Positions 47,097-50,106 of a stretch of DNA of 64,000 nt are shown here, piece by piece. The translations under genes were made by a program, and so were the position numbers. Source of the stretch: Escherichia coli (GTDB lineage: Bacteria; Pseudomonadota; Gammaproteobacteria; Enterobacterales; Enterobacteriaceae). Numbering within the stretch: the first letter of the stretch is position 1; the number at the start of each line of letters is the position of its first letter. Under the pieces are notes generated by a model. That model saw nothing but the letters and a program-made list of their open reading frames with translations. It was not told where the DNA came from and ran no database searches. Location of the stretch: NCBI RefSeq assembly GCF_016903815.1, contig NZ_CP069973.1, one strand, 5' to 3'.

Positions 47097-47372
47097 TCAG
47101 ATTTCACCTTTTAATTTCATTGCAATTAGAGTTGCCAGAAATTCGGCTTTTTTTTCTGTGGGCAGATTCTTTCCGATATGCACCAGGCACATTTTTTTGA
47201 CACCTTCATCAAGTGTTTTTACGTTGCCTGATGGACCATCGATATCAACCACAGTGAATGGGGTTTCTTTATTTTCTGTTTTAATTACGTAGCCAATGCG
47301 CTTTCCTTCCAGATTCACCTCGTGAACAATGTCATCGGTAGTTACAACAGTGGCTTCATAATTGGTAATCAT
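47097..47372 (-). CDS. racC: Rac prophage protein RacC
   Basis: 91 aa from MITNYEATVV within ORF 47097-47420. Confidence 0.7.
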   Translation of the reverse strand: MITNYEATVVTTDDIVHEVNLEGKRIGYVIKTENKETPFTVVDIDGPSGNVKTLDEGVKKMCLVHIGKNLPTEKKAEFLATLIAMKLKGEI

Positions 47373-47446
47373 GTTTTTCTCCTTAATTAAGGTTGAGCGA
47401 ATACCTGCCATTTCTGGCATAAATTCAGTTTCGAATAGTCAATTAA

Positions 47447-47617
47447 TTAAAGTTCATGTGCCATCTGGTCTTTTTCGGCACAAGCTTCACTGCAATATTT
47501 TCTCGGTTCGTCTTTTGATAAAATCCCGTGCATGAAGTGAAGCATTCTTTCAATAGCTTTGCTTTCTTCAACGTCTTTTTTGCAAAGGTGGTAAGCACAT
47601 TTTATTTTCTTAGTCAT
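47447..47617 (-). CDS. ydaE: Small Cys-rich protein YdaE (56 aa)
   Basis: [56 protein letters not shown]; start overlaps kilR stop. Confidence 0.7.
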   Translation of the reverse strand: MTKKIKCAYHLCKKDVEESKAIERMLHFMHGILSKDEPRKYCSEACAEKDQMAHEL

Positions 47618-47838
47618 CACCATGACTCCGCCTTTACAGGTAAACCATCACGACCGAGGAAGACTTTAATCATGCGGTCAGTAATGCATGTTTTTGTGGT
47701 CAGGTTACGAATATATAGTTTTCGCTTTTTAATATTGTTTGCCGAGGCAATATATGTCCGGCCTTCATGAAGAACATAATCGCCAGGAGTCACACACTGA
47801 CGTGGTATTTCATCAGTTCCGAAGTGATGTGCAATCAT
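47617..47838 (-). CDS. kilR: Cell-division inhibitor KilR
   Basis: 73 aa from [14 protein letters not shown] within ORF 47617-47850. Confidence 0.85.
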
Positions 47839-48279
47839 AATTATCTCCATTTTTACAAATGAACTTTGTTGATGCGGTGCCTGGTGCCTCCAGGTGACTG
47901 CAACCAGTTAACAATTACAGTCGGCTTTCCCACCCAAACCAATAAGGACTAACATGACTTTTAACTGTGCCACGTGCGCTTAGCCGCATTCACCGCATCA
48001 CAAAATTCACTTTAAAAAGGGCGGACATCAGCCGAACTTCAAGAAAAAAACTGATGCCGCCAGGACTACACACAGCAATGTCGTTATTTACAACCGGAGG
48101 CGCACTCCCACCATTTAAATTTAACAGACAAGACCGACTCTTTATGGATATCGGAAATGCGCCTTCGTGTTGTGCCCGGTTTTATTTCACCACCTCCGGG
48201 CTTCGGTGGTCTCGGCTATACCCCTACAGCGAGAGCTTGTGTTAACATTTCAATACCCTTACAGTTGAGAGTTATTGAT

Positions 48280-48768
48280 ATGTTGGATGTATTTACTCCA
48301 TTGTTGAAACTTTTTGCTAACGAGCCACTCGAAAGACTTATGTATACGATTATCATTTTTGGTCTCACTCTCTGGCTGATACCGAAAGAGTTTACTGTCG
48401 CATTCAATGCTTATACTGAAATACCTTGGCTCTTTCAGATTATCGTTTTTGCCTTTTCTTTCGTGGTCGCCATTTCCTTCTCAAGATTGCGAGCACATAT
48501 TCAAAAGCATTATTCATTACTACCAGAGCAACGAGTATTGCTTCGTTTATCTGAGAAAGAAATCGCTGTATTTAAAGATTTCCTTAAAACAGGAAATCTT
48601 ATTATCACTTCTCCTTGCCGTAACCCGGTTATGAAAAAATTAGAACGGAAGGGCATCATTCAACATCAGAGTGATAGCGCAAACTGTTCTTATTATCTCG
48701 TCACCGAAAAATACTCCCATTTTATGAAGTTATTCTGGAACAGCAGGAGTAGACGTTTTAATCGTTAG
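48280..48768 (+). CDS. sieB: Superinfection exclusion protein B
   Basis: 162 aa from MLDVFTPLLKLF; N-terminal TM helices. Confidence 0.85.
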   Translation: MLDVFTPLLKLFANEPLERLMYTIIIFGLTLWLIPKEFTVAFNAYTEIPWLFQIIVFAFSFVVAISFSRLRAHIQKHYSLLPEQRVLLRLSEKEIAVFKDFLKTGNLIITSPCRNPVMKKLERKGIIQHQSDSANCSYYLVTEKYSHFMKLFWNSRSRRFNR

Positions 48769-48920
48769 CTTACTGTGTGCTTCTCCAACCATCGGCGCGC
48801 ACCAGTTTCGGTTTTAAATGTTTTGCTTTTGGTATACGTCATGGCAGTGAACGTTCCATCCTGGTTGGGGAACACGCCGCACACCAGGGATTCGTTGTTG
48901 CCGAGGTCGATTTTTTGCAT
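48765..48920 (-). CDS. ydaF: Small Rac protein YdaF (51 aa)
   Basis: MQKIDLGNNESLVCGVFPNQDGTFTAMTYTKSKTFKTETGARRWLEKHTVS; overlaps sieB stop. Confidence 0.65.
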   Translation of the reverse strand: MQKIDLGNNESLVCGVFPNQDGTFTAMTYTKSKTFKTETGARRWLEKHTVS

Positions 48921-48930
48921 TTTGCGAATC

Positions 48931-49065
48931 TCACATCTTGTTGCTACGTATAGCGACTTCTGCCTGCCAGAGATCCCAGTCGTTGCTGCGTAAAGCCTGC
49001 ACAGCCTGGTTGTAAGTGATACCGCAACAATCCATCAAATACTGAACTACTTCGTAATGCACCAT
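48931..49065 (-). CDS. ydaG: Small Rac protein YdaG (44 aa)
   Basis: MVHYEVVQYLMDCCGITYNQAVQALRSNDWDLWQAEVAIRSNKM. Confidence 0.65.
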   Translation of the reverse strand: MVHYEVVQYLMDCCGITYNQAVQALRSNDWDLWQAEVAIRSNKM

Positions 49066-49352
49066 CTTATCTATCCCCTTAACGCCGGGTGGCGGAACTA
49101 ACTGCTGCACTGCAAAATTTGAATCCCGCCGTCATGTTCATACGCCTCGGGCTGGCTACTTAACCCCTGACCACTGCCTGGTAACTCGAAGTATTGCCCG
49201 GCGTTCTGTGGGGCGGGGTGGGTTGGTAGGTATATAATGTACTTTGTGTTCATCATTGTAAAGTACTTTAAGTACATTTTATGTATAAAAAAATGAGACG
49301 GGATAAAGTGAAGCACAAACCCGGAGGGGGACGCTACCGGATTTATGCTGGT

Positions 49353-49772
49353 TTAAGAGGCTTTTTGTTTTTTCTTTCGTGCTAACTCTTCGTAAATTGC
49401 ATTGTACTTCTGTTTTTTCTCCTCAAGAGTTTTTAAAAGTTCATCTGTCTCACTGTCAGGGAGCTCGTCCAGAAGGTCAATGATGATTTTTTGTCTTGGA
49501 TTTAACTCCTGATAGAAACGTATCTGTCCACTTTCTTCTGTATCCTCTCCCAAAAGATAGGTTGGTGTTGTTCCAATGAGTGTTGCTAATTCCCTTAATT
49601 TCTCTCGGCGAGGAATTGTTTCACCATTAAACCATTTGCTAACCGCTTTTGGTGTTAATTTCATTCGACGGGCAATTTCTGCCTGCCTTCCATGTTGTTC
49701 ATAACCAGCGTTTTCACAGGCTAGCGCAAGCCTACTGGCGAACTCTTTACGCGCTTTATCTTCATGAACCAT
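49353..49772 (-). CDS. racR: Prophage repressor RacR (cI-like, XRE HTH)
   Basis: 139 aa; HTH region; divergent from ydaS. Confidence 0.85.
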   Translation of the reverse strand: MVHEDKARKEFASRLALACENAGYEQHGRQAEIARRMKLTPKAVSKWFNGETIPRREKLRELATLIGTTPTYLLGEDTEESGQIRFYQELNPRQKIIIDLLDELPDSETDELLKTLEEKKQKYNAIYEELARKKKQKAS

Positions 49773-49851
49773 AAGTTCAATGATATTCGCTCTTGAATGT
49801 ACTGTCAGTTCTGTTATAGCATGTACTCAAAGTTCACATTGTGAGGGTGAT

Positions 49852-50106
49852 ATGAACCAGAAAACACTTGAAGATGTAATCAAAACTGTTCGCGTTTCTG
49901 TTGTGGCCGACGTTTGTGGTGTCAGCCAAAGAGCAATCTACAAATGGATGGATAACGGAAAATTGCCTCGCACAGAATATACCGGCGAAACAAATTACGC
50001 TGAAAAAATCGCTCATGCATCAAACGGATTATTTTCTGCCGATGCAATTTTAACTATTGGCAGAAATAAAACTACTACGAAAAAGCTGATGGGAGTTGAT
50101 TCATGA
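49852..50106 (+). CDS. ydaS: Cro-like HTH protein YdaS; start uncertain (ORF opens at 49780)
   Basis: GAGGG SD before ATG 49852; 4 nt overlap with ydaT. Confidence 0.7.
   Translation: MNQKTLEDVIKTVRVSVVADVCGVSQRAIYKWMDNGKLPRTEYTGETNYAEKIAHASNGLFSADAILTIGRNKTTTKKLMGVDS

Follow-up and report, generated by a model that had tools for sequence, protein, structure and literature searches.

The window, a 64,000-nucleotide stretch of Escherichia coli DNA (assembly GCF_016903815.1, contig NZ_CP069973.1), includes the Rac prophage, as identified by the surrounding ORFs recE (866 aa), racC, ydaE, kilR, sieB, ydaF, and ydaG. Between the divergent genes kilR and sieB lies a gap of 442 bp (47839-48280) that holds no protein gene. 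The first-pass annotation had described a non-coding, divergent interval beginning at 47851. Both properties agreed with RefSeq and Pfam, and the start was 12 bp off because kilR had been read as a longer frame of 77 aa, where RefSeq gives 73 aa. The gap has a close counterpart in the Rac prophage of E. coli K-12 MG1655 (two mismatches in 801 aligned nt, no gaps, and a fixed coordinate offset), and 1364-1715 of 5426 complete E. coli genomes carry it with a coverage of at least 80%. In strain HCP17S3_I4 (NZ_CM149871.1 2502724-2504401), the match to window positions 47600-48500 was split in two by IS1A. The gap had also been called unusually long for a prophage early region, but its length is typical of the phage group: the corresponding non-coding stretch is shorter in Shigella phage 75/02 Stx (~330 bp) and longer in mEp460 (~575 bp) and in Qin, where it lies between ydfC and dicB (~570 bp). 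Features located in and around the gap are collected in Table 1.

Table 1. Genes and sequence or RNA features of the kilR-sieB gap and its surroundings (window coordinates).
Feature	Position	Strand	Details
kilR	47617-47838	-	73 aa; RefSeq annotation of identical DNA
Structured kilR 5' leader, STnc100-type core	47839-48013	-	175 nt, from the KilS 3' end to kilR; no terminator of its own
Closing helix, 3' arm	47852-47879	-	Inner 9 nt CACCGCAUC, 47871-47879 = P1; end adjoins the kilR Shine-Dalgarno
Hairpin H2, CCUGG-AGGCA-CCAGG	47880-47894	-	Near-invariant signature of STnc100-type cores
Hairpin H1	47896-47922	-	8-bp stem of variable sequence, conserved loop UUGUUAACUGG
Predicted pseudoknot	47905-47911 (UUAACUG, H1 loop) with 47961-47967 (CAGUUAA)	-	7-nt complement in Rac
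Closing helix, 5' arm	47991-48018	-	Inner 9 nt GAUGCGGUG, 47991-47999 = P1
KilS sRNA (K-12 kilS, b4833)	48014-48111	-	98 nt; K-12 RefSeq ncRNA 1418405-1418502 (-)
DicF-type intrinsic terminator of KilS	48014-48061	-	Stem GGCGGCAUCAG / CUGAUG(U)CCGCC, 19-nt loop, then C + UUUUU
KilS 5' seed AUUGCUGUGUGUAGUC	48064-48079	-	KilS nt 33-48; made accessible by RNase E cleavage at 48080
Predicted extended -10 of the KilS promoter, TGT-TAAATT	48118-48126	-	Hexamer ends 7 nt before the start at 48111; read from sequence
Hairpin ACCACC-N10-GGUGGU	48189-48210		Between the KilS and sieB promoters; read from sequence
ACCCYTACAG copies	48220-48229 and 48255-48264	+	Flank the predicted sieB promoter
Predicted sieB promoter region	48220-48264	+	Extended -10 TGTTAACAT at 48240-48248; predicted start ~48254-48255
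sieB	48281-48768	+	RefSeq annotation of identical DNA
Promoter-like TTTACA-17-CATTAT	49262-49234	-	Promoter scan; homology break falls at the -10
Repressor gene	49353-49772	-	139-aa HTH protein

The right-hand ~90 bp of the gap probably contain the rightward sieB promoter and 5' UTR, the latter with a predicted length of ~26 nt. The annotated sieB promoter of P22 (29690-29720) and its mapped RNA start (29727) align with this part of the gap, and Rac and P22 share a 16-nt identical block TACCCCTACAGCGAGA, a duplicated ACCCYTACAG, and a hairpin. The position and pairing of the ACCACC hairpin are kept in P22, mEp460, Rac-SA53, AVS0790, and AF10. The hairpin is also present in prophages that carry another small rightward gene, or none, instead of sieB, and no U-run follows it on either strand. 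The ACCCYTACAG copies lie ~34-35 bp apart in Rac, P22, and other prophages and straddle the sieB -35/start (window 48189-48264; P22 29663-29737). The hairpin and the duplicated sequence may form a regulator-binding site, or they may be tied to the sas antisense RNA of P22, for which the P22 record has no annotation.

In Rac as in P22, sieB has a promoter of its own and runs opposite to the early-left operon, and the promoter block, the hairpin, and the ACCCYTACAG pair are conserved. The two differ on the other side of the gap, where P22 has ral instead of a DicF-type sRNA and leader, and an Rfam search of the P22 ral-sieB gap found neither DicF nor any other Rfam element. Similarity to P22 is confined to the sieB-promoter side. 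Codon 21 of Rac sieB is an in-frame Met (ERLMYTIII; 48281-48343) and a sigma-70-like site lies inside the gene (48329-48356, +), both of which recall the SieB/Esc dual products of P22.

KilS and its relation to DicF and RprA

The main element of the gap, the sRNA KilS, is already annotated and published. KilS occupies the same locus and strand in the window as in K-12, with all 98 nt identical, and both of the probes published by Bar et al. match the window exactly. In K-12, KilS was predicted by RIL-seq, verified by northern blot, and found to be Hfq-dependent and to accumulate in stationary phase, with yncL as its named target and RIL-seq partner (Bar et al. 2021, PMC8175672). The KilS start of Thomason et al. 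(1418502) corresponds to window position 48111 and the RNase E site (1418471) to 48080 (both listed in PMC8175672). The fold of KilS has a predicted energy of -34.9 kcal/mol (z -3.1). Sequence TGT-TAAATT would be the promoter element of KilS, without a good -35; this -10 is kept in Rac-SA53, AVS0790, and AF10, and reads TAGATT in phiSTEC1589. A simple promoter/terminator scan reported neither the promoter nor the terminator of KilS, a silence that is uninformative because the -35 is weak and the terminator loop is longer than 8 nt.

Homology over the 3' 56 nt, terminator included, identifies KilS as a diverged paralogue of DicF. The Rfam DicF model (RF00039) matched 48019-48074 (-) at 39.1 bits (E 6e-7), which is under the gathering score of 48, while DicF of Qin scored 76.7 bits with the same model. 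When the minus strand of Rac was compared with the ydfC-dicF-dicB region of Qin, near-identity extended from the terminator UGGCGG through the downstream start codon, with weaker similarity and many indels 5' of the terminator. Phage variants of the terminator stem showed compensatory changes from C-G to U-A and from U-A to C-G. KilS also shares with DicF the early-left position 5' of an FtsZ-directed division inhibitor, the homologous terminator (UGGCGGYAUCAG...CCGCCCUUUUU), and a ~175-nt spacer that is nearly identical and closed by the same long helix. The common gene order runs from the repressor through a DUF1391 gene, the sRNA stretch, and the ~175-nt spacer to the division inhibitor (dicB/kil), and this order was found in Qin, mEp460, 75/02 Stx, Rac-SA53, and AF10, as in Rac.

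Several properties set KilS apart from DicF, namely its own promoter and 5' extension, the sub-threshold Rfam score, and the lack of an anti-ftsZ loop, and the downstream gene in Rac is kilR, not dicB as in Qin. DicF pairs with ftsZ at -29 to -7 through ACUCCG. This anti-ftsZ sequence is absent from KilS, and the best duplex of KilS with the ftsZ start was matched or beaten by 22% of shuffles. Because it has neither ACUCCG nor better-than-chance complementarity to ftsZ, KilS is taken here as a relative of DicF and not as its functional duplicate. The Rac-like prophages of strains AVS0790 and AF10, which have no sieB, carry a chimeric sRNA whose 5' seed resembles KilS and RprA and whose anti-ftsZ loop CUACUCCGUGGCUGC resembles DicF. 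Faubladier and Bouche in 1994 reportedly described dicF-like terminator elements in other prophages, and the gist of this report is backed by a paper that cites it.

The 5' seed of KilS was identical in 16 of 16 nt to RprA nt 60-75, and the local alignment of the two RNAs extended over KilS nt 2-59 with similar flanks. By arithmetic, a chance 16-mer match between two RNAs of ~100 nt is expected ~2e-6 times. Processed RprA consists of its last 47 nt (PMC9262595) and therefore begins at the shared motif. The placement of the motif is alike in both RNAs, single-stranded, directly after the RNase E processing site, and just 5' of the terminator hairpin. Part of the motif, GUGUAGUC, is kept in several diverged phage sRNAs and relatives with differing loops. 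The identity suggests either seed mimicry of RprA or common descent with it. Outside the motif and its flanks the two RNAs differ in terminator, promoter, and regulation (the Rcs phosphorelay belonging to RprA), and the part of RprA that pairs with rpoS is not kept in KilS.

Duplex tests were performed using RNAduplex with seed-sized windows and shuffles; runs with whole RNAs gave meaningless long duplexes. The duplex of the KilS seed with the yncL 5' UTR, at -43 to -16, reached -20.8 kcal/mol, a value equalled by 3.8% of shuffled targets, which lends modest support to this pairing. KilS probably uses its RprA-like seed on yncL, and it could possibly act on RprA targets as well. The seed hints at sRNA cross-talk between prophage and host, which is a lead and not a result. 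Bar et al. 2021 (PMC8175672) made no mention of DicF and reported no link of KilS to RprA or STnc100; these links are additions of the present analysis and useful refinements.

The kilR leader and STnc100-type cores

The stretch between the 3' end of KilS and kilR was matched by the Rfam STnc100 model (RF02076) at 47831-48017 (-) with 35.5 bits (E 5e-6), under the gathering score of 47, and the dicF-dicB spacer of Qin scored 34.4 bits with the same model. Its fold (-69.1 kcal/mol, z -5.0) was more stable than expected, with 0 of 200 shuffles as stable. Copies ~80% identical to this leader lie 5' of dicB or kil in many phages. All of the core helices of STnc100 are present in the Rac leader, namely P1, Pa, H1, and H2, the last with the invariant CACCNGGAGGCACCNGGCAC.

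The closing helix is an inverted repeat with 28-nt arms that are 71% complementary, and it is extended to ~22-30 bp. The minimum-energy fold carries this helix as far as the kilR Shine-Dalgarno GGAG (47845-47848), whose first two G's pair with the final CC of the KilS terminator. An alignment of 40 homologues supported the predicted structure, as 7 of its 19 predicted pairs keep pairing with both sides changed in at least one sequence; in P1, five of the nine predicted pairs stay paired with both sides changed in at least one of the 40 homologues. At the third pair of H2, Rac and Qin have U-A where the others have G-C, again with both sides changed. Stems of H1 differ wholly between subtypes, yet are always paired.

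A possible interaction between the H1 loop and the junction, a segment that directly follows the first small hairpin, was tested without an alignment; the 5' strands are out of register between subtypes in MAFFT alignments. Perfect complements of at least 6 nt between loop and junction occurred in 74.6% of 59 representatives, compared with 4.3% of shuffled loops, and in 38 distinct sequence versions. This indicates a pseudoknot, which we did not notice in the structure line of Rfam STnc100.

Comparison with STnc100/PasD showed a shared core consisting of P1, a small hairpin, the junction-loop pseudoknot, H1, and the invariant H2 (CCNGG-AGGCA-CCNGG). What sets the copies in Rac and Qin apart is a sub-threshold score, the missing seed-plus-terminator tail, fusion to the ribosome-binding site of an ORF (kilR or dicB), and an extended closing helix. 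The terminal hairpin of STnc100 is deleted in the Rac alignment, leaving no 3' terminator of its own, and the core continues straight into the Shine-Dalgarno and AUG of kilR. Judging by the predicted fold and by analogy with Qin, we infer that the kilR leader acts in cis, on translation and as an RNase III substrate.

Cores of this type are widespread in phages. The CACCNGGAGGCACCNGGCAC pattern was found in at least 120 IMG/VR stretches, often several per contig, and among the IMG/VR matches listed STnc100 scores were strong, typically 52-165 bits. Leader-type cores sit 5' of several different ORFs. STnc100-type cores also occur in tandem arrays, with up to seven Rfam matches per contig among the matches listed, often beside tRNA genes. 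Each core of an array leads into a variable segment plus a terminator, or immediately into an sRNA of the DicF/KilS kind (four IMG/VR examples). In phage P7 (AF503408.1, ~72434-72592), a leader-type core lies in the ban operon between tRNA-Thr and terB, directly 5' of the terB ribosome-binding site, and a boxA-like GUGCUCUUAC precedes it.

The 175-nt segment could instead be a trans-acting or processed sRNA of the STnc100/PasD type, or a remnant of one. Rfam types STnc100 as an sRNA, related copies end in terminators of their own, and STnc100/PasD RNAs are considered base-pairing sRNAs in a 2026 preprint; since RNAs of this family are described in the literature as trans-acting, the leader could have another role. 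We regard this explanation as unlikely for the Rac element. The Rac and Qin copies have no 3' terminator of the family type and run straight into the ribosome-binding sites of kilR and dicB, leader-type copies precede several different ORFs, and it is specifically in copies of the Rac/Qin type that the closing helix is extended.

It is quite improbable that the STnc100-type core is an antitermination element, factor-independent or Nus-dependent and comparable in function to put of HK022 or to a nut site, that feeds transcription into kilR-recET. Such a role would agree with the position of the cores inside long phage operons, often just 5' of intrinsic terminators or in untranslated sRNA/tRNA arrays, with their complex, pseudoknotted, and highly conserved fold, and with the gene tables of phages carrying cores, in which no N homologue was noticed. 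One sub-clade additionally has a boxA-like GUGCUCUUAC just 5' of P1. In its strict form, however, this sequence was present in 8 of 120 cores among the matches listed, essentially from one clade, and it is therefore not general; it is degenerate in Rac and Qin. In addition, the Rac element lies after the KilS terminator and not before it, and it has no sequence match to HK022 put. Homology of the leader core to put was considered and rejected: the motif was absent from the HK022 genome even when four substitutions were allowed, and the published put residues (A3GACG7...) differ. A cis-acting leader of kilR is the reading retained below.

The early leftward promoter and the proposed control of kilR

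By analogy with lambda, the gap had been expected to contain the early leftward promoter and operator (pL/oL), and possibly antitermination sites. The expectation that it is a lambda-like pL/oL with nut sites, bound by the prophage repressor, was in keeping with the divergent flanking genes, the length and non-coding nature of the gap, and the leftward start site at 48111. It is very improbable given the comparison of Rac variants. Window and K-12 Rac are 99.4% identical over 44000-49228 and then diverge through the immunity region until ~50097. The window repressor shares 12 of 33 HTH residues with K-12 RacR (36% over 33 aa) and is otherwise unrelated, so its gene is not racR in the K-12 sense. 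Since heteroimmune Rac variants with unrelated repressors have an almost unchanged gap in common, repressor-specific operators cannot sit in it.

Sequence repeats likewise pointed away from the gap. ATGTACT/AAGTACAT repeats are located on both sides of the repressor gene, at 49237-49277 and 49797-49827, with none in the gap, and exact copies of ATGTACT in the region are restricted to 49237, 49271, 49797, and 49821. These repeats look like the operators of the window repressor. A search for repeats shared between the gap and the repressor-flank region (49100-49900) returned nothing beyond short chance matches. A 9-mer at 47858-47866 differs from the operator-like motif at one position, but it belongs to the leader helix and is also conserved in Qin, whose repressor is different again.

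On the leftward strand, the stretch from 49400 to 47600 yielded no nut site of the boxA/boxB type. The boxA matches on this strand were confined to 48325-48326, in antisense orientation within sieB and with no hairpin after them, and had three mismatches to the 13-nt rrn boxA or one to the 8-nt core. Taken together, the homology break, the repeats, and the lack of a nut site direct the lambda analogy to 49229-49352, ~1 kb from the gap, where the TTTACA-17-CATTAT sequence is likely the early leftward promoter. This arrangement is comparable to P22, in which pL, oL, and nutL adjoin c2; the Rac equivalents adjoin the repressor gene, outside the gap. The leftward promoter inside the gap drives KilS and not the early operon, and its mapped start yields a terminated 98-nt sRNA. 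The pL/oL reading of the gap is thus largely refuted. Of the elements that motif prediction was suggested to reveal, candidate promoter elements were read in the gap for KilS and sieB, and operator-like repeats were seen only beside the repressor gene. In place of a single simple promoter without structure, the gap holds divergent promoters and structured RNA elements.

The gap had further been said to hold only short or SD-less frames, and its non-coding nature was borne out. Although ORFs of 92, 41, 33, 29, and 28 aa are present, the notion that it encodes at least one unannotated small protein is scarcely credible and protein coding by these ORFs is unlikely: none matched a Pfam family at E≤1, no CDS is annotated in the gap in K-12, E2863, or the feature lists of the best 30 E. 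coli matches, and variation among gap homologues tracks RNA helices: some changes are compensatory or give G-U pairs, and indels occur without regard to the reading frames.

The gap probably serves as a regulatory spacer with three parts, belonging to an early-left module of the DicF/DicB type, and is not pL/oL. On the kilR strand, the 98-nt, Hfq-dependent KilS starts at 48111, from a promoter with a predicted extended -10, and is cut by RNase E at 48080; homology shows that it ends at the DicF-type intrinsic terminator. The terminator hairpin would double as a transcription stop 5' of kilR, and KilR would therefore be made only from read-through RNA. Such RNA would carry the 175-nt leader, with P1, the small hairpin, the pseudoknot, H1, and H2, in which the predicted helix joins the U-tract side of the terminator to the sequence just 5' of the kilR Shine-Dalgarno. 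The predicted structure suggests that this closing helix damps translation of kilR. By analogy with DicF-dicB of Qin, the helix may also be cleaved by RNase III, which would free the sRNA from the kilR mRNA. RNase III reportedly takes part in DicF 3'-end formation and in the separation of DicF from dicB in Qin (Faubladier et al. in 1990). Upon repression of NusG, kilR has been found to be expressed through read-through transcription into Rac (PMC5793797), which fits a gate made of a terminator and a leader.

On a wider scale, the STnc100-type core could be a widespread pseudoknotted cis device that gates a toxic ORF or an sRNA on its 3' side, with KilS-type sRNAs mimicking processed RprA and so tapping its regulon; we offer this as a tentative proposal and consider it rather doubtful. 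If it is true, the core might be a sensor, a handle for RNA polymerase or a nuclease, or a ribozyme-like fold, with kilR, dicB, or a DicF/KilS-type sRNA as outputs.

Linking the gap to DicF, RprA, and STnc100 and placing pL/oL elsewhere refines the picture usefully but is no discovery, and it corrects an assumption that was based on lambda. KilR is the Rac toxin that makes inhibition of Rho/NusG lethal. It also mediates the growth arrest that OxyS induces following oxidative stress (PMC5793797). Silencing of kilR and its later release would both pass through the gap, where a terminator-sRNA of the DicF family stands in front of kilR, followed by a leader whose predicted fold is the same as that preceding dicB and many other phage outputs.
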